Of a DNA stretch of 64,000 nt, positions 19,326 to 29,138 are shown piece after piece. Position 1 is the first letter of the stretch. Each line of letters begins with the position of its first letter. The notes beneath the pieces are model-generated. The model was not told the DNA's origin. It saw only the letters and a list, made by a program, of their open reading frames with translations, and did no database searches. The stretch covers positions 320,001 to 384,000 of the forward strand of contig CAWEMM010000007.1 in assembly GCA_963810095.1 (NCBI GenBank). Reading direction: 5' to 3'. The stretch is from an uncultured Chloroflexia bacterium (GTDB taxonomy: Bacteria; Chloroflexota; Anaerolineae; CG2-30-64-16). The translations under genes and the position numbers were made by a program.

Positions 19326-19391
19326 AGAAACCAGGTCTCTACCGCCATCCCGTCACTTCGTAACGTTGGCTGGCGCAGAAACCTGGTTTCT
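19326..19391. repeat. Family C palindromic repeat pair upstream of thyA
   Basis: agaaaccaggtctct (19326-19340) and agaaacctggtttct (19377-19391). Confidence 0.7.
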
Positions 19392-19404
19392 TGAAGAGTT
19401 GACC

Positions 19405-20199
19405 ATGCGCCAGTATTTGGACTTAATGCAGCACATTCTGGATCACGGGGCAGACAAGACCGACCGCACCGGCACCGGCACGCGCTCTGTCTTCGGCTAC
19501 CAGATGCGATTTGACCTTGCGGCGGGCTTTCCGGTGCTCACGACGAAGAAGCTGCACCTCAAGTCCATCATCTACGAGTTGCTGTGGTTCATCAACGGCG
19601 ACACCAACGTGCGGTGGCTGCAGGAACGCGGGGTGACCATCTGGGACGAGTGGGCGGACGCGGACGGCGAGCTGGGGCCGGTGTACGGCAAGCAGTGGCG
19701 CTCGTGGTCGACCGCGGACGGCCGTGTGGTAGACCAGTTGGCCGGGGTGATCGAACAGATCAAGCGCACACCCGACTCGCGGCGGCTAATCGTCAGTGCC
19801 TGGAACGTCGGGGAGATCGAGCGGATGGCGCTGCCACCCTGCCACGTGCTCTTCCAGTTCTACGTGGCGAACGGCCGCCTGTCGTGCCAGTTGTACCAGC
19901 GCTCGGTCGACGTGTTCCTCGGCCTGCCGTTCAACATCGCGTCGTATGCGCTGCTGACGATGATGGTGGCGCAGGTGTGCGACTTGCTTCCGGGCGAGTT
20001 CATGCACACGAGTGGCGACGCACACCTCTACCGTAACCACTTCGACCAGGCCCGCCTCCAGCTCAGCCGTGAGCCTCGGCCGCTGCCGCAGATGCGGATA
20101 AACCCGGCTGTCAAGGACATCGGTGGGTTCGGTTACGAGGACTTCGAGCTCGTGGGGTACGACCCGTATCCGCGGATCAAGGCGGACATCGCGGTATAA
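19405..20199 (+). CDS. thyA: Thymidylate synthase
   Basis: [72 protein letters not shown]. Confidence 0.98.
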
Positions 20200-20201
20200 G
20201 C

Positions 20202-20238
20202 AAAGAGACCAGGTTTCTGCCAGAAACCTGGTCTCTTT
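20202..20238. terminator. Family C perfect inverted repeat between convergent thyA and ribF-archease; probable bidirectional terminator
   Basis: aaagagaccaggtttctg-c-cagaaacctggtctcttt (18-bp arms). Confidence 0.75.
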
Positions 20239-20245
20239 CTCTAGG

Positions 20246-21599
20246 TTACACGTCGAACGTGACTCGGGCCCGCCACCCTCCGGGCGTTTCCCGCACGTCT
20301 ACGTCGTAGAACGTGACCGCCTTGACTGCGGTGTGCGTGGGCGTGCCGTGGTAGCCGTAAGCCACGCCTCGCACGCCGCGGCTCGAGATTTCGTAGATCT
20401 CAAACCGGGTGTACATCTCCCCGCCCACTTCCTGCCCCAGGAGCAGCCGGTTAAGCCACCCGACGATGAGCTCCTCGAACCCATCCGCCTGCGCGCTGAT
20501 GGCGCGCGCCAGGCTAACCGGCCGGCTCTTGTCCACATCCTGCAACGAGTACATCGCGTCCGCGGCGTTGGCGAACAACTCGGCGGGGCCTGCACCGGCC
20601 ACGTCGACCGCCCAATCTGCCGTGTGCACCAGCTCGCGCCAGCCCGTACCATCTCCGCTTAGGGCGTCCGTTGGAGGCTGCGCCAGCATTGCCTGCGCCT
20701 GCTGCGCGTCCGCGCCGATTTGCGCCACGAGCTCGCCGATGTCCGCGAACTTCTTCTCCCCGCGCAGCCGCGCCATGAAGCTCAGGCCCAGCGTCTCGCC
20801 GTACAGGTCGCCGGCGAAGTCAAGCAGGAAGGCTTCGATGGAGGGATGGCCGTTGTCGAAGCTCGGACGCACGCCGATGTTGACCACGGCGGGATAGCCC
20901 CGGTCGCCGCGCCACGCCCAGCACGCGTAAACACCGTAAGCGGGCAGCAGGCGGTCTTCCGCGATGCGCAAGTTGGCGGTGGGGAACCCTAACTGCCGGC
21001 CGCGCTTCGCGCCCTCCACCACTTCGCCCCAGAGCCGGTAGGGCCGGCCCAGCAGTTCGGCCGCGGCCTCGACCGCGCCGTCCTCGCTCAGCAGGGTGCG
21101 CACGCGGCTGGAGCGGACCGGCTCACCCCGCCAGTCGTAGGGCGGGACCACGCGCAGCGCGAACCCCAGCTCGCGGCCTAGCTCCGCCAGGCGCTCCGTG
21201 TTCCCCTCGCGGCCCGCGGCCGAGCGCAAAATCCGGGCCGACCCATAGCTCGGCCAGCGGCAGGTGGGCCAACAGGTCGACCACGAAGTCTGGTGCGGAG
21301 GTCGCGGCGGTTCGCCGCGTGAACGGCAGGACGACGACGAAATCGAGCCCGAGCGCCGCGAGGAGGTCGGCGCGCTCTTCGTTGGTCGTCAGGCGCGGCA
21401 CCTTGACTTCGGGGCGCAGCACGGCCACCGGGTGCGGCTCGAAGGTCAGGAGGCCGGCCAGCCCGCCGTGCGCATGGGCAGCGGCCGAAAGACCGCAGAT
21501 GAGCATCTGGTGACCGCGGTGCACGCCGTCAAAGTTGCCGATGGTCAGGTAGACCGGGCCGGCGATGGGTGATGACGGAAACGAGTCGAAAACATCCAT
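20246..21599 (-). CDS. ribF: Bifunctional FAD synthetase/riboflavin kinase fused to a C-terminal archease domain; one frameshift near 21215
   Basis: TIGNFDGVHRGHQ, TFEPHP, VGPDFALG, SSRVR, LLGRPY, RGRQLGFPTAN, GVYA, NIGVRPSF, IEAFL, RGEKKF; then in the same frame ELVHTADW...ELIVGWLN...VKAVTF...VTFDV* (archease). Confidence 0.9.
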
Positions 21600-21638: not shown

Positions 21639-22538
21639 CTACTCTCCGGCGAACACTTTCTCGGGCCACCACTCTTCCCGCTCGGCGTCTGGGCGGAGGA
21701 TGGCGACAACCGCGCCGTCGTGGCTAAGCGCGTAGCCGTCCCGCGTCAGGCTGGCCGGGTGGCCGGCGATCGGTTGGCCGTTGCGTAGTCGCTTCACGTC
21801 ATCCTCGGACACGGGCACGGGCGTGAGTTGAGACAGCGCGGCATTCATCGGGTGCAGGTGCGGGGCCAGTTCGCCGGCGCGGTAAGCGTCCGCGACACTC
21901 TCCGGGCTCGAGCGCGTCGCCGACCAGGAAGCGGCCGCTCCGCGTGCGCCGCAAGCCCGACAGGGCCGCGCCGCATCCCAGCGCCTGGCCGAGGTCGTGT
22001 GCAAGGCTGCGGATGTAGGTGCCCGGCTCGCACGTGACGTCGATTGTCAGGCACGGCTCCGTCCAGTCGACAGCTGGATGCTGTGAATATGAACCGGCCG
22101 GGCCGAGGGCCGGACATCTTCGCCGCGCCGCACCCGCCGGTGCAGTGGCACCCCATCCTGCTTGATCGCAGAATAGGCGGGCGGCGCCTGCATGATGTCG
22201 CCGACGAAGCGGCCCAGCGCCACCCAGATCGCACCCCGGTCGATGTCAGGGCTAAGCGGTCGTGTTTCGACGACTTCGCCCTCCATGTCGTAAGTGTCTG
22301 TGATGGCGCCGAGCTGAACGGCAGCCCGGTAGGTCTTGTCCGAGGCCATCAGGTACTCGCTGACGCGGGTTGCCTGGCCCACGCAGACGAGCAGCACCCC
22401 GGTAGCGAGAGGATCGAGGGTGCCGGCATGGCCGACCCGTTTCACCTTGAGCACCCGGCGAATCCAGGCCACCACGTCATGCGACGTCCAGCCTTGCGGC
22501 TTGTCAATGTTCAGAATGCCGTCCACAGTATTTCCCAT
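21639..22538 (-). CDS. truB: tRNA pseudouridine(55) synthase; multiple frameshifts
   Basis: [64 protein letters not shown]-terminal PEKVF. Confidence 0.95.
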
Positions 22539-22555
22539 CGATGAGAGCCTCGGAG

Positions 22556-22625
22556 AACACAAAGACACCAAGCCACCAAGACGCTGAGGTCTTAGGATGC
22601 CCTTGTGTCTTTGAGTCTTTGTGTT
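22556..22625. repeat. Family A palindromic element overlapping the 3' end of the DHH gene
   Basis: aacacaaagacaccaagccaccaag ... cttgtgtctttgagtctttgtgtt. Confidence 0.75.
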
Positions 22626-23651
22626 GGCTCGGTCTTCTTCAGGCTCGCAGCCTGCACAAGCGGCAGGACGCGGGCCTCGGCATCGGCAAGCGGGCCCGGC
22701 AGGTTGCAGCCCGCGGCTTGCGGATGGCCGCCGCCGCCCAGGCTGAGTGCAACCGCGGCCACGTCGTACCCGGGCCTCGACCGGAAGTCCACTTCGATCA
22801 TGCCGGTCGCCAGTTCGTTGAACACGACGGCCACAGCCGGCTTCCGCCGCTGTTGATCAGCTGGCTCACCAGCCCGCCGTCGTCGTCGCCGTCAATACCC
22901 GCCGACTCACGCATCTCACGCGTGACCTCAGCCCACAGCACCCGGCCGTCGAGCCGAGCGCTCGAAAACGCCATCGCCCCACAGCCGCATGAACTTGAGC
23001 GGCCGGGTCGCCAGCGTCCGCTGCGCGATGTCGGCCAGGTTCGCGCCCGCCTCCATCAGCCGCACCGCGCAGGCCATCTCTGCGGCCGTCACGTTGCTGG
23101 TCCGGAAGCCCGAGCGTGTCGGTGACGAGGCCCACGAGCAGCGGAACGGCGGCAGACGCCGGCAGCGGCACGCCGAGGGCGTCGGCCAGCGCCACAACCA
23201 ACTGCGAGGTCGAGGCGCACTTCCGGCGCGACGTAGTTGAGGTCGCCGAAGTGCAGATTGGTGATGTGGTGGTCGATGACCAGCAGCGGGCGCGGGCGCG
23301 AACGCCAGGCCGGCGAAGATCTTGCCGAGCCGCGCCGGGTCGCTGGCGTCCAGCGAGATGACGAGGTCGGGATGCAAATCCGGCGGCAGCTGGTTGACGA
23401 TGCGGCCGTCCGCCGGTCTCGCGCCCGGCAGGAAAAGCAGCGATCTCGGGCGCGGGGTCCTGGCAGGCCAGCGTGACGCGGCCGGGCCGCCCGGCCAGCT
23501 CGGGCAGGGCATCGCAGCAGGTGCCCCAGCCCGAGGAGCGAGCCGATGGCGTCGCCGTCAGGGTTGAAGTGGCAGAACGCCACGATGTTCCTGGCCGCCG
23601 AGGATGTGCGGCTGCCAGGTCACTCAGCGCTGCGCTGTTCGGCGTCGGCAT
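22592..23651 (-). CDS. nrnA: DHH/DHHA1 phosphoesterase (NrnA-like nanoRNase/pAp phosphatase); many frameshifts
   Basis: CHFNPDGDAIGS, ISLDAS, VIDHHITN..FGDLN, GLVTDT, FRS, GGGGHPQAAG pieced across frames; canonical position between rbfA and truB. Confidence 0.88.
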
Positions 23652-24096
23652 GATTCTCCTGCTCGCGCGCGTCCTGCTCGGTTTCGTTCTGCGGCTCGGG
23701 GCGCATCGCCGTCGCCCGCACCGTCTGCGGTGCGGTCGGCGTCGCTGCTCGCTGCGATCTGGTCCAGGATCTCGTCGATACGCTGTGCGCGCTTCTCAGT
23801 CTCGTCGACGACGAAGTGCAACTCGGGCACGACGCGCAGGTGCAGGTTCTCGAGCAGCGAGCGGCGCAGGAACGTGGTCGAGTGCTGCAGTGCGCTCAAC
23901 ACGTGGCGCGATTGCGCGGGCGGGCAACGCGTGCTGGATGTACACGCCGCGCATTGCCCAGGTCGGGCGACACCTGAACGTCGGTGACTGTGACCATCGC
24001 GTCGTCGAGACGCGGGTCGGTCAGTTCACTGGCGATCAGGAGGCCCAGTTCCTCAGTCAATACCTCGGCAATACGTTCTTGCCGGCGAGAGGTCAT
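23620..24096 (-). CDS. rbfA: 30S ribosome-binding factor A; frameshifted
   Basis: [11 protein letters not shown]...DPRL...[25 protein letters not shown]...AQRIDEIL; ATG overlaps the infB TAA. Confidence 0.92.
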
Positions 24097-26737
24097 TACA
24101 GTACCCGTTCCTTCTTGTAGGTCTCCAGGATGTCGCCGACTTCGAAGTCGTGGAAGTTGTGCAGGTTGATGCCGCACTCGAACCCCGTCTTGACTTCGGT
24201 CGCGTCTTCCTGGAACCGCTTCAGTGCGCGCGATCTTGTCTTCGGCCACCACCTCGCCGCCGCGCTTGACGCGCACGGACGAGTTGCGGGTGATTTCGCC
24301 GTCGAGCACCATGCAGCCCGCGATCTTGCCGACCTTCGAGACCTTGAAGACCGCCCGGATTTCCGCATGGCCGGTCACGACTTCCTTGTAGACCGGTTCG
24401 AGCAGGCCCGTGAGCGCCTTCTGCACATCCTCGATGATGTTGTAGATGATGTTGTAGATGCGGATGTCGACGCCCTCGGCCTCGGCCAGGCGCTGCGCGC
24501 CCGCTGTCTGCCACGACCGAGAAGCCGACGATGATGGCGTGCGACGCGATGGCCAGCATGACGTCCGACTCGGTGATATTGCCCGTGCCCTGGTGCAGGA
24601 TCTTGACCTTCAGCTTGTCGGTGCTCAGCTTCTCGAGCGAGTTCACGATCGGCTCGATCGAGCCCTGCACGTCGGCCTTCAGGATCAGGTTGAGTTCCTT
24701 CGACCTTGCCGGCCTCGGCCTCGGCGAAGATGCTTTCCAGCGTGCGCACGGGCGCGGGTCCTGCGGCCGCCTTCTTGGACAGCTGCCGCTCTGAAGCCAT
24801 GGAGCGGGCGGTGCGGTCGTCGGCGACGACCTTGAACGTCTCGCCCGCCACCGGCACGTCGGAGAAGCCCAGGATCTGGACCGGCGTCGCCGGCGGCGCC
24901 TCGGTGATCGGCTCGCCCTTGTCATCATACATGGCGCGAATCTTCGGCGTAGGTTTCCCCGCTCACGATGCTGTCGCTCACGCTGCAGCGTGCCGTTCTG
25001 GACCAGCAGGGTGGCCATGGGGCCGCGCTGCTTGTCCAGCCGGCTCTCGATCACCGTGCCCAGGCATTCGCCCTTTGGGTTCGCCGTCTGCGGGTCCACG
25101 TCGGCCAGCAGCAGGATGCTCTCGAGCAGGTCGTCGATGCCGCGGCGCATCTTCGCCGAAACCGGCACGCACATCACGTCGCCGCCGTACTCCTCGATGA
25201 GCACGCCGTTGTCCGCCAGTTCCTGCTTGACGCGGTCGGGGTTCGAGCTTGCGCCTTGTCGATCTTGTTCATCGCGACGATGATCGGCACCTGGGCCGCC
25301 TTCACGTGCGCGATGGCTTCTTTCGTCTGCGGCATGACGCCGTCATCGGCCGCCACCACCACGATCGCGATGTCCGTCACCTGCGCGCCGCGGGCGCGCA
25401 TGGCGGTGAAAGCCTCGTGACCCGGCGTGTCCAGGAACGTGATCTTGCGACCGTTGATCTCGACCTGGTACGCGCCGATGTGCTGGGTGATGCCGCCGGC
25501 CTCGCCTTCGACGACGCGGGTCTCGCGGATGGCGTCGAGCAGGGTCGTCTTGCCATGATCGACATGGCCGAGCACGACGACGACGGGCGGGCGGAGGACC
25601 ATGTCCTCCGCCTCTTCTTGCGCCATGATCTCGCTGGCGCAGGGTCTGCGGCGCGTCCTCCGGCTCGGCCGATACTTCAGGTTCCGCCGCGCTTCTCAGG
25701 ATGGACCGCGATGCCCAGTTCCTCGCCGATGAGCGCGGCCGTGTCGAAATCGATCGACTCGGTGATCGGCACCATCATGCCGTAGTTCATCGAGCGTCTT
25801 GATGATTTCGATCGGGCTCTTGCGCATCTTGTCGGCCAGGTCGCGGACGGTGATCATGTCCGGAATGATGATTTCCGTGACCGCGGCCGCCGCGGCCGCA
25901 CGCGCGAGACCTGGGTCAACGGCGGCGGTGCGAGCGTCTCGCCCGCGGGCAACTGCGAACCGCGGCCCCGCTGGCCGCCCTGCGGTCGCTTTTGGCCGCC
26001 CGGCCGCCCGGCTTGTGACGAGCCGCCGCCGGGCCGCCGCTGCTGGTCGGGCGCCTTGCGCGGTGGACCACCGCGGTCAGGTGCACCCGTGGGCGGTGTG
26101 CCGAAGCCCCCGCCACCCTGATTGCCGCCGAAACCGCCACCGGGCCGGCCCTGCGCTGGACCGCGGCCGGGGCCACCCTGTCCGCCATAGCCGCTCGGGC
26201 CACCGAAGCCCCCCGGGGCGTGGACCGCCGGGGCGTTGGCCGCCCACCGGTCGGGGACCACTGGGCGCGGGCCGCCCGCGCGGCACGACCGTGTCCTCGG
26301 ACGTCGGGTCGAAAACGCGCTGGTTGAAGGGTTCGTCGGGGTTTGCGGGCTGGCCGTCTGGCCGGACACCCGGCCCACCTGGCCGTGCTCCCGGTGCACC
26401 GGGCCCGGGGCCGCCGGGACGCGACGGCCCTGGTGCGCCCGCGCCGCCCGGCTTGGACGGGCTAGCAGGCTTGGCAGACGCCGGCGTCTTAGGCTGGCGC
26501 GCCGCATCATTGCGGGCCGCGTCGTTGCGCGCACCGTCACGCTGCGCACCGTCACCCTGCATCGCGTCGCTGCGGGGTGCGTTATTAGCGGGCCTGGCCG
26601 GCTGACCGAGGGTTGGGTCGTGTCCCGCCCTGCTGCGCACCCTGCCCACCGGGATTCCCGGGCCGTGCGGGTGTGTTGGGCTCGTTTTTTTCGTCTTGTG
26701 CCCGCTTGGGCTGATCATTCTTCGGGTCGTTTGCCAT
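24096..26737 (-). CDS. infB: Translation initiation factor IF-2 with long Gly/Pro/Arg-rich N-terminus; many frameshifts
   Basis: [77 protein letters not shown]; RBS aggagg. Confidence 0.97.
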
Positions 26738-26804
26738 TAATCCATCCTCCTGTTGCCGGTAGGCCCGCCTCTCAGGAAGCGGGCCGCGAACGGCCAACCT
26801 GGTA

Positions 26805-27015
26805 CGCGCCAGGGTGCTGCACCGCGTGAGTTGCACGAGCCGGCCGGTTCATATATAAGGTCAAACGACGGGGAAGGACAGGGGGTGTCAGAGGGAGCGG
26901 CTTAGAGGTCAACGTACCATAAGCCCTTCCTCGTGACGCCTCAGTCCTGCGCCCATCGGTTGTGTTGTGAGTTACGACCCACAACCTGCGGGGTGGCGCC
27001 CGCAACTAGCGGTCG
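26805..27015 (-). ncRNA. Candidate structured ncRNA (6S-like rod with central bubble) between ylxR and infB; strand uncertain
   Basis: About 200-nt self-complementary rod by manual pairing (accgc/agttgc closing stem, unpaired A/C-rich and AT-rich segments, ~70-nt apical stem 26876-26948); no credible ORF. Confidence 0.35.
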
Positions 27016-27106
27016 CGTGGCCGCTACCATCACTTGCTCCTGTTACAGAGGTGGCGTGGATCCGCATGGAACAATCGCCCTCGACGGATCCACCCGATGC
27101 ATTCGA

Positions 27107-27444
27107 CTATTCCTCTGGCAGCGTCTCGGCGTACGCCTTCAACCCCGCCAGGTCTTCCTGCGTTATCGTCGTCTTCAGCGCCGCATTCAGCTTGTGAACA
27201 GCGCCGGGCCCTGCCAGCAGGGTCGCGCCTTGCACAGGTACGCCCCGCGGCCGGCCACCTTGCCCGTCGGGTCCACCCGAACGGCGCCGTCGGGCGTGCG
27301 CACGATACGCACCAGCTCGCGCTTGCCCCGCTCCGAGCGGCAGACCACACAGGTCCGCTGCGGCACGTGCTTCGGCCGCGGCCCCTTGGGCTTCGACCCC
27401 CCGGATGGCGCTTGCTTCGCCCCGGCTGCCTGTGCGGGCGTCAT
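27107..27444 (-). CDS. ylxR: YlxR (RnpM/DUF448) RNA-binding protein; frameshift near 27195
   Basis: KHVPQRTCVVCR...KRELVRIVRTPDG.V.VDPTGK.AGRGAYLC...LNAALKT. Confidence 0.93.
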
Positions 27445-27450
27445 CGCGGC

Positions 27451-29138
27451 CTAGTATTCCCCAAGATCGCCCCAGCCGCCGCGGCCCGGCTTGCGCTTGC
27501 GCCGCGCGACGACCTGGCCCAGGTCCTCGTCGAACACCAGCTCGCGCTTCTTCGTGTCCTTCTTGGCCTTCTTGGCGGGCGCCTTCTTGGCACCGGCGGG
27601 CTGGGCCTCGCCGTCTTCTTCGTCGTACTCGACTTCCTCGGCCGGGAACGCTTCGGGGACGAGGAGACCTTGCCGTGCCTCGACCATCGTCTGCGGCTCG
27701 ACTGCGACACCCGCAACCTCAGTCGACGGTGCGGCGGGCTTCGACGGTCTCGGGCGCGGCCTCCGCCTCGATCGTCTCGGCGGGCGCAGGCGCCGCGGCC
27801 TCGACAGCCTCGGGTGCGACCTCTGCCTCGACCGGTTCGAGCTGCGGGGCTTCGCCCTCGGGGGCTTCCTGCTCCACCTGCGGCAGCTCGAGGCGGTTCT
27901 GATCTGCATGGGCCAGCAGGCGTGCCGCCGTCTCGAGCGTCGCCTGCGACTTGTCTCGCTCGCGGAGCAGCCACTCGGCCCGGCTCAGCAGGTCGTCGCT
28001 CGGCGGCAGCGCCGCGGCCTTGTCCTGCAGGCTTCGGGCGCGGATCATCTGCATCTGCTGGCGCTTGATCTCGGCCAGGCCCTCGGTGGCAGCCTCGGTC
28101 TCGCTCTTGATGTCGATGCGCCAGCCCGTCAGCTTGGCCGCCAAGCGGGCGTTCTGGCCTTCCTTGCCGATGGCCAGCGACAGCGAGCGGTCGGGAACCA
28201 CCACGATCGCCGTGCGCAGGTCGCCTTCCTCGATCAGGATCGTGTCGGTCGGCTTGGCCGGGCTCAGCGCATTGCTGATGAAGTTGCGCACATCGGCCGA
28301 CCACTCGACCACGTCGATCTTCTCGCCGTTCAGCTCGTCGACGATGTTCTGGATGCGCGTGCCGCGCAAGCCGACGCACGACCCGACCGGGTCGACGCCG
28401 GGCTGGCTTGCAGAAACGGCCACCTTCGAGCGCTGGCCCGGCTCGCGCGCAATGCTCTTGATCTCGACCGTGCCGTTATAGATCTCGGGGATTTCCCGCT
28501 CGAGCAGGCGGCGGAGCATATTGCGGTGCGTGCGCGAAAGCCGGATTTGCGGCCCGCGCGTGCCCTTGTTGATCTCCGCCAGCAGCGTGCGCACGTTCAT
28601 CCCGACGCGGTAGCGGTCGTTCGGCAGCTGGTCTTCGGCCGCAATGATCCCCTCGGCCTTCTTGCTGAGGGTGACGGTCACCGCATTGGAGCGGTAGTCA
28701 ATCGACTGCACCTGGCCGGTGATCAGCTCGCCTTCCCGCTGCTTGTAGAAGTCATACAGCTGGTCACGTTCGGCCTCGTGAATGCGCTGCAGGATGACCT
28801 GCTTCGCGGTCTGCGCGGCGATGCGGCCGAAATCGGCCGGCTGCGCGTTGGTCAAGGATCGTGCCGCCCACCTCGGCATTTTTGTCGATCTTGCGTGCCT
28901 CGGCGAGGGTGATCTCCGTCGCCGGGTCTTCAACCGTCTCGACGACCGTCTTCTCGCACGTGACCTGCAGATCGCCGGATGTCGGGTCAATCGACGCCTG
29001 CACGTTCGCTGTCGCGCTGGCGTAGTTTTTCCGGTAGGCGTGGACCAATGCTTCTTCGATGGCTCCCAGGATCACATCGCGCGGCAGCTCCTTTTCCGCG
29101 CAAATCTGGTTAACAGCCATGATCAGCTCTTTGCTCAT
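27451..29138 (-). CDS. nusA: Transcription termination/antitermination factor NusA with long acidic C-terminal extension; frameshifts near 28860 and 27750
   Basis: [22 protein letters not shown]1 domain, [67 protein letters not shown]. Confidence 0.97.

Follow-up and report, generated by a model that had tools for sequence, protein, structure and literature searches.

A three-domain RibF-archease fusion in Anaerolineae and its most likely role as the activator of RtcB

Why would archease, the activator of RtcB-family RNA ligases, be joined to RibF, the enzyme that makes the flavin cofactors? The question is raised by a minus-strand gene, ribF::archease, in a 64,000-nucleotide (nt) stretch of DNA from an uncultured Chloroflexia bacterium (GenBank assembly GCA_963810095.1, contig CAWEMM010000007.1, positions 320,001 to 384,000), hereafter the window. 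An earlier reading of the letters alone, which we call the sequence-only reading, described RibF fused in frame to an intact archease and offered two alternatives, that RNA repair is physically tied to flavin enzyme activity or that archease was captured into a housekeeping operon. We find that the fusion is a genuine, conserved three-function protein comprising flavin mononucleotide (FMN) adenylyltransferase, riboflavin kinase and archease. Taken as a whole, the explanation that we favour, and consider likely, is that this conserved protein derives from an operon, that its archease serves RtcB and is predicted to dock on RibF, and that a frameshift in the window copy is an error.

The whole gene occupies positions 20246..21599 on the minus strand (FAD_syn, Flavokinase, linker and Archease), with its stop codon at 20246-20248 according to the open reading frame (ORF) translation, and is broken by one extra base in the assembly. 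The minus-strand ORF 20246..21229 (327 amino acids (aa), TTG start) carries Flavokinase and Archease in one frame without an intervening stop. The riboflavin kinase domain lies at 20684..21052 (minus; Pfam PF01687, aa 60-182, 145.2 bits, E 1.5e-42, profile 1-124 of 124) and the archease domain at 20249..20641 (minus; PF01951, aa 197-327, 82.1 bits, E 6e-23, profile 1-136 of 136), with a linker of 14 residues between the two matches (aa 183-196; 20642..20683, minus). The archease match exceeds the curated Pfam cut-off of 25 bits across the whole domain, in which HTAD and KAVT are followed by a terminal D-V immediately before the stop. ORF reading and Pfam thus agree with the sequence-only reading, which had traced the RibF kinase helix (ending AQAML) through about 14 aa of linker into a full, stop-free archease with HTAD, KAVT and a terminal FDV-stop.

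The extent that it gave to the gene, 20246-21229, does not hold. Position 21229 is not the start, as the FAD_syn (FMN adenylyltransferase) domain is found at 21201..21557 (minus; PF06574, 116.1 bits, aa 15-133, profile 7-126 of 158) in the frame of ORF 21123..21599. RibF was therefore not read in one piece: as assembled it is not intact, FAD_syn and Flavokinase fall in two frames, and the frameshift in the FAD_syn part had been missed. In 19 of 19 relatives the two domains share a single ORF. The motifs GxFDGxHxGH, with the HxGH-type catalytic signature of the adenylyltransferase, and PTAN, the catalytic motif of the kinase, are seen in the window's ORF translations and are invariant in both alignments of relatives (A1 and A2). 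Judged by sequence and model, the RibF portion looks like an ordinary type I flavin adenine dinucleotide (FAD) synthetase. Profile searches of the window genome, which is 88.5% complete, returned one archease match, the ribF fusion itself, and one FAD_syn match, in the broken fusion gene.

Is the junction between the two enzymes real? The sequence-only reading had cautioned that it might be an assembly artefact, in which separate ribF and archease genes were joined by two compensating indel errors near 20650-20661. The many frameshifts in neighbouring genes and the one in the fusion gene speak for such an origin, as does an out-of-frame TAA (20661-20659) with a GGAG-ATG (ATG at 20652-20650) inside the linker. 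Reading of the frames bears out both the presence of these signals and the argument built on them: TAA and ATG share one frame, which is not that of the two domains, so that splitting the gene needs two compensating indels. Short-read contigs of public runs, inspected across the linker as that reading had proposed, show neither mismatch nor gap against the window at 20540-20678 and 20628-20818, and jointly span the linker at 20642-20683; they possibly stem from the assembly's own sample and are thus a check of the assembly and not an independent organism.

Relatives carry the same architecture. In each of the 19 relative loci that were read, FAD_syn, Flavokinase and Archease share a single ORF (447-470 aa), which a contig end clips in one case. 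Their linkers vary in sequence and in length (about 12-30 residues), differences that independent indel errors could not yield. Among the same-family genomes, 20 of 24 have one uninterrupted match to query residues 5/6-327, and in the remaining four the match falls into colinear pieces, interrupted where the frame changes or a contig ends. An even sample of 301 class genomes yielded 68 matches that run across both domains, in 67 genomes; no stop interrupts the span in 64 of the 301.

The domain combination that the sequence-only reading had suggested searching for was also found in the protein database, where 119 of the best 120 clusters hold PF06574, PF01687 and PF01951. The names attached to these 119 go no further than 'riboflavin kinase/FMN adenylyltransferase' or the like, and metagenome-assembled genomes of Anaerolineae or Chloroflexi are the source of several; going by such names of close database relatives, the class of the window's relatives appears to be Anaerolineae. 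A sample of 401 genomes from the phylum, searched at E <= 1e-52, gave a full-span match only in the window's own genome and one same-family genome, a threshold that remoter fused forms could miss. The exact short-read match, the 19 relatives, the 64 class genomes and the 119 clusters together refute the artefact, and we reject it, attaching practically no weight to it.

The frameshift in the FAD_syn part is a separate matter. A 1-nt insertion in a GGGCC run (21211..21215, minus) puts the FAD_syn part out of frame with the remainder of the gene; the extra base was located by three-frame translation against the reading G-R-G-R-E-G-N that all 19 relatives keep. We consider this insertion probably an assembly error, because it falls in the genome's only FAD_syn and because truB, infB, rbfA and nusA, core genes close by, are broken up likewise. 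The sequence-only reading had called the assembly indel-rich, which these split genes upstream and the frameshift within the fusion gene corroborate. Alternatively, the window copy may be a true pseudogene, a dead gene inactivated by the insertion. The extra base is present in the assembled sequence, the short-read pieces from four public runs (short contigs of low depth, from one study) include none listed over 21211-21215, and at 88.5% completeness a second ribF is conceivable. RibF is essential in bacteria, however, and the sole FAD_syn match of the genome sits in the broken gene. The frame remains open after the shift, with full-profile kinase and archease domains, and breaks of the same type in nearby core genes point to a systematic indel error. 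We regard a dead gene as quite unlikely.

If the protein is real, what does its archease do? Across all 73 close and all 26 distant fused proteins, D325, K423, T426 and D446 (in the numbering of a 72%-identical relative) never vary, and H322 is retained in 73 of 73 and 24 of 26, respectively. In terms of the window's motifs, the Asp of HTAD is kept in 99 of 99 fused proteins and its His in 97 of 99, and the Lys of KAVT in 99 of 99. All complete fused proteins that were read end one residue past the penultimate Asp, as D-[V/I/T]. In the accessible text of PMC3973293, changes of H9, D12, K117 or D141 of Pyrococcus horikoshii archease, or removal of its last residue, cripple RtcB activation. For human archease, the accessible text of PMC10944509 has the ion Mn(C) bound by D51, D178 and the terminal carboxyl of I179, and the phosphate by K156; archease with an N-terminal His tag was crystallised there in complex with RTCB. 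The predicted fold of the relative's archease domain (residues 321-447; means of 86-98 for the predicted local distance difference test, pLDDT, in blocks of 10 residues each) matches solved archease structures, with template-modelling scores (TMt) of 0.72 to 8btx, 0.71 to 4n2p and 0.68 to 8odo_B. In two fused loci of family f17 (L028 and L031, in genomes G040 and G086), the His of HTAD is replaced by Tyr (YVAD and YTAD).

Given these residues, the most likely function of the fused archease, as far as sequence allows a judgement, is the known one: it would be the cell's RtcB activator, acting in trans in the window's family. We propose that RibF produces FMN and FAD in the ordinary way, and that the archease tip, made up of the HTAD Asp, the KAVT Lys, the final Asp and the free carboxylate at the C-terminus, would enter the RtcB active site. 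There it would hold a third Mn ion at the gamma-phosphate of the nucleoside triphosphate (NTP), which would allow RtcB to be guanylylated and to turn over repeatedly. Because rtcB is now at another locus in the window's family, archease would there serve RtcB in trans, and its base would rest on the RibF body, with the tip outside the contact residues. The position of archease at the C-terminus of the fusion is explained by the terminal carboxylate being a metal ligand and by the N-terminus tolerating additions, so that archease can be attached through its N-terminus and not through its C-terminus.

The distribution of RtcB was compared with that of the fusion in the class sample. RtcB was found in 63 of the 64 fused genomes, the exception being G086. 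One further genome, G038 (97% complete), has no RtcB match, and its fused archease has decayed (locus L030, contig C74, ORF 1281-2636, minus): the domain scores 20.2 bits, below the cut-off, and covers profile positions 1-100 of 136 only; HTAD, the Lys and the terminal motif are gone and the RibF domains are intact. This decay of archease in a genome that lacks RtcB points in the direction expected if the domain serves RtcB. A same-family fusion in another genome (L029, G017, contig C7, ORF 1320-2735, plus) has good FAD_syn and Archease matches and no Flavokinase match, the kinase region being seemingly degenerate.

Where, then, is the ligase? The sequence-only reading had noted that rtcB is missing from the window, and we confirm this: the window (on contig C7 of the genome in our numbering) has no rtcB, and the genome's single RtcB match, a full-length protein of 485 aa, lies on contig C6, flanked by unrelated genes. 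Adjacency of archease and rtcB on the same strand is thus absent from the window genome; it is found in 14 of the 64 fused class genomes, where rtcB is directly downstream, and in unfused relatives. In one more fused genome rtcB lies within about 0.9 kilobases (kb) by coordinates. As read from their translations, the neighbours of rtcB in the window genome (L002, G000:C6, 1351-2808) are a MoaA-like radical S-adenosylmethionine (SAM) gene, an IscA/ErpA-like gene and a seemingly frameshifted radical-SAM gene.

Relatives present a series of arrangements from separate genes to the fusion. In G030, truB, ribF, archease (Pfam-confirmed) and rtcB are separate, with the archease ATG 3 nt past the ribF stop and an 8-nt overlap between archease and rtcB; G164 has the same unfused gene order. 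The ribF and archease genes of G025 lie in different frames and overlap. In G042, G257 and G255 they stand in the same frame with a single stop codon between them, so that one substitution would fuse them. In G029, G047 and G235, truB, the fused gene and rtcB follow in a row. Seventeen genomes have RibF-part and RtcB matches on one strand with 595-997 nt between them, as expected if an unfused archease gene lies there; ORFs were read in G030 and G164 only. In five other relatives the gene just upstream of rtcB is a stand-alone archease, and ribF is found on another contig or far off on the same one. In seven relatives (G010, G014, G017, G020, G025, G028 and G037) an in-frame insert of about 1.5 kb interrupts the RtcB match at about profile position 46-50; these inserts are open frames of about 1000 aa, intein-like in size and manner, and the RtcB of the window genome has none.

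This series suggests how the fusion arose. We consider it likely, as part of the favoured explanation, that the stop between ribF and archease was lost in a truB-ribF-archease-rtcB operon common in Anaerolineae, and that rtcB departed from the locus only in some lineages, the window's family among them. Of the two alternatives of the sequence-only reading, the capture of archease into the housekeeping operon is the better supported, in a fuller form than it was given: an archease-rtcB pair stands behind truB-ribF in many genomes of the class, and archease was then fused to ribF.

The fusion did not necessarily arise once. When the RibF parts were placed in a maximum-likelihood tree, the members of the window's family grouped together in a single clade (Shimodaira-Hasegawa-like approximate likelihood ratio test, SH-aLRT, 99) within an all-fused clade of 33 rows and six families (support 92); for every genome of these families with both matches listed, rtcB is on another contig. 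Fused and unfused forms occur side by side in a second clade (98). The tree requires a minimum of five changes of fusion state, at least two of them forced by well-supported branches, and so fusion or fission occurred more than once; a single origin, which we also considered, finds no support. The 50 rows of the tree left out the window copy, the truncated L019, the degenerate L029 and L030, and L043, and as it is unrooted and has only six unfused rows, gains and losses are indistinguishable in it. In one bin (G177) two fused ribF::archease genes are present (contigs C106 and C325), one of them next to rtcB, by duplication or through a mixed bin.

Does archease merely ride on RibF, or do the two touch? 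For modelling, the protein of the 72%-identical relative was divided into RibF (aa 1-306) and archease (aa 315-447), which entered the prediction as separate chains on an alignment of 77 rows. The interaction score derived from predicted aligned errors (ipSAE) was 0.88, 0.89 and 0.89, with 57-60 contacts, at least 98% of contacts agreeing between runs and a partner pLDDT of 90; the best of three controls scored 0.00. Of 80 solved complexes 58 attain this docking mark, as do 2 of 110 mismatched pairs, counts that are only rough with a custom alignment. AlphaFold2 folded the whole chain of the relative with a pLDDT of 93.1 and a predicted template-modelling score (pTM) of 0.91, and the pLDDT means of the two 10-residue blocks over residues 301-320, which include the linker, reached 96 and 91. 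Among the solved structures there is no chain with all three domains, and the docking score is thus not the memory of a like complex.

The predicted contacts join the kinase beta-hairpin 227-236 and the adenylyltransferase helices 31-42 and 78-84 to archease segments 357-367 and 399-409. The tip residues 322, 325, 423, 446 and 447 are outside these named contacts, although a residue that is not named is not thereby free. At the interface, W229 and G234 are conserved in 73 of 73 close fused proteins and A361 and G405 in 72 of 73; these proteins are 59-100% identical to the query, and their kinship inflates the conservation. In the 26 distant fused proteins the interface positions differ, position 234 being Arg in 25. 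The fused protein of G047, from another clade and with rtcB adjacent, gave a pTM of 0.69 and a linker pLDDT below 50 on a shallower alignment of 26 rows. This low pTM and uncertain linker indicate that docking is not general to the fusion, and we suggest from the models that it may be a later adaptation of the window's family.

Docking, if it occurs, could have a purpose. Archease might have become a fixed module of RibF in the window's family, with the two activities influencing each other: binding of substrate or flavin by RibF might control whether the archease tip can reach RtcB, or the docked state might change kinase or adenylyltransferase activity or RibF oligomerisation. The gap between ipSAE values of 0.88-0.89 and a best control of 0.00, the whole-chain pTM of 0.91, the near-invariant W229, G234, A361 and G405 in the 73 close proteins and the lack of a solved three-domain chain that could have been memorised are all in keeping with such coupling. 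The case is one of prediction, however, made with both chains from one alignment with paired rows, a set-up that is uncalibrated. The invariance partly reflects kinship, the linker varies in length within the family from about 12 to 30 residues, the G047 fusion of another clade gives a pTM of only 0.69 with its linker below a pLDDT of 50, and since the catalytic-tip residues are absent from the named contacts, docking need not affect function. Functional coupling is in our judgement unlikely. The same low credence goes to its further implication, that RtcB would be activated on RibF and possibly gated by it, tying RNA ligation to the state of flavin-cofactor synthesis. The first alternative of the sequence-only reading, RNA repair physically tied to flavin enzyme activity, gains from the predicted docking and remains the less supported of its two.

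A more radical possibility is that archease was repurposed, no longer serves RtcB and instead aids the nucleotidyl transfer of RibF (FMN + ATP -> FAD + pyrophosphate) through its metal-binding tip, in the way that it helps RtcB with GTP. The reactions of RibF and RtcB are both nucleotidyl transfers that release pyrophosphate, and archease is predicted to dock on RibF. Archease also extends the NTP use of RtcB to ATP, according to the accessible text of PMC3973293. The predicted interface, however, is formed by archease 357-367 and 399-409 without the tip residues 322, 325, 423, 446 and 447; the tip residues are identical in fusions that have rtcB next door; and the domain decays in the RtcB-less G038 despite an intact RibF. 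To our knowledge, stand-alone RibF enzymes need no archease-like helper. We consider repurposing very unlikely.

Returning to an archease that serves RtcB in trans from a genuine three-function protein, several observations weigh against this explanation. RtcB is present in 269 of the 301 class genomes regardless, so that its co-occurrence with the fusion discriminates little. Genome G086 has a fused, intact-looking archease and no RtcB match at 95% completeness; its fusion is 280 nt from a contig end, and rtcB may simply be unassembled. The archease decay in G038 rests on one genome. The site of the frameshift has no listed read piece, which leaves some room for a true pseudogene, and no RNA runs containing the locus are listed. 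Finally, the strong predicted docking argues that the fusion is more than a means of co-expression, which RtcB activation in trans does not need.

The gene neighbourhood fits the operon proposed for the locus. Upstream on the minus strand, at 21639..28990, are truB, an nrnA-like gene (DHHA1), rbfA, infB and nusA (Pfam TruB_N, DHHA1, RBFA, IF-2/GTP_EFTU and NusA KH_5/NusA_N, many partial), in accord with the string nusA-infB-rbfA-nrnA-truB-ribF, ended by archease, of the sequence-only reading. All five genes are split into several ORFs or partial Pfam matches, indicating many frameshifts in these core genes. On the other side, thyA (thymidylate synthase, Pfam; 19366-20199, plus) converges on the fusion gene. 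Between the two lies a perfect 18-nt inverted repeat (20202..20238), with one terminator-like match on the plus strand inside it, which is likely a two-way terminator. One short-read contig has an additional G after 20221, in the loop of this repeat.

Each domain of the protein is a plain member of its family. What is distinctive is the covalent fusion of RibF and archease, widespread yet undescribed in the literature that we found: a search extending to neither supplements nor subscription journals returned no report that pairs archease with riboflavin kinase or RibF, or rtcB with ribF; the one paper in which archease and riboflavin both occur is a soil-microbiome study. Archease has so far been studied as a small free protein, and here it is a domain of an essential metabolic enzyme across a class of widespread bacteria. 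Because these proteins are named RibF only, annotation reveals neither the archease nor its connection with RtcB. The series, which leads from separate genes by way of one in-frame stop and a fusion beside rtcB to the loss of rtcB, is a natural record of a fusion that formed and outlived its operon. It also tells at which end archease accepts a tether, in agreement with the C-terminal carboxylate as a metal ligand.

The placement of archease behind nusA-infB-rbfA-truB-ribF also hints at a constitutive, translation-linked role of RtcB and so bears on the purpose of the bacterial enzyme. If RtcB were indeed activated on RibF, ligation would be housekeeping of the translation apparatus and not a stress response, because the pair ends the nusA-infB-rbfA-truB operon. 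The predicted docking offers a concrete idea of cross-talk between cofactor synthesis and RNA ligation.

Compared with known archease (PF01951; P. horikoshii and human), the domain described here shares the full-length Pfam match, the H, D, K and terminal Asp, the free C-terminal residue, the predicted fold and an RtcB in the genome. In those systems archease is a free 16-kDa protein; here it is the C-terminal domain of RibF, rtcB is not adjacent in the window genome, and derived residues (for example A361 and G405) lie at the predicted RibF contact in the window's family. Compared with the type I FAD synthetases of Corynebacterium ammoniagenes (2x0k) and Thermotoga maritima (1mrz), the fusion has the same order of FAD_syn and Flavokinase, in a gene after truB, and the relative's model superposes on 2x0k with a TMt of 0.82 at 35% identity. 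The fusion adds a C-terminal archease that is in none of the solved chains, and the score over the query (TMq) is 0.63 because this third domain is unmatched.

The rtcB-archease operon, as given in the accessible text of Desai et al. (2014; PMC3973293), is matched by relatives in which archease, free or fused, is likewise directly upstream of rtcB on the same strand. Unlike in that operon, the pair here extends the nusA-infB operon at its truB-ribF end, and in the window's family rtcB has gone from the locus. A link of archease with an enzyme other than RtcB has a precedent in Pyrococcus, where it is linked with a tRNA 5-methylcytosine (m5C) methyltransferase (Auxilien et al. 2007, as cited in the accessible portions of PMC3973293 and PMC4275035). 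As far as those citing texts describe it, the Pyrococcus proteins are separate and the partner modifies RNA, whereas in the fusion reported here the link is covalent and the partner is an enzyme of cofactor synthesis.

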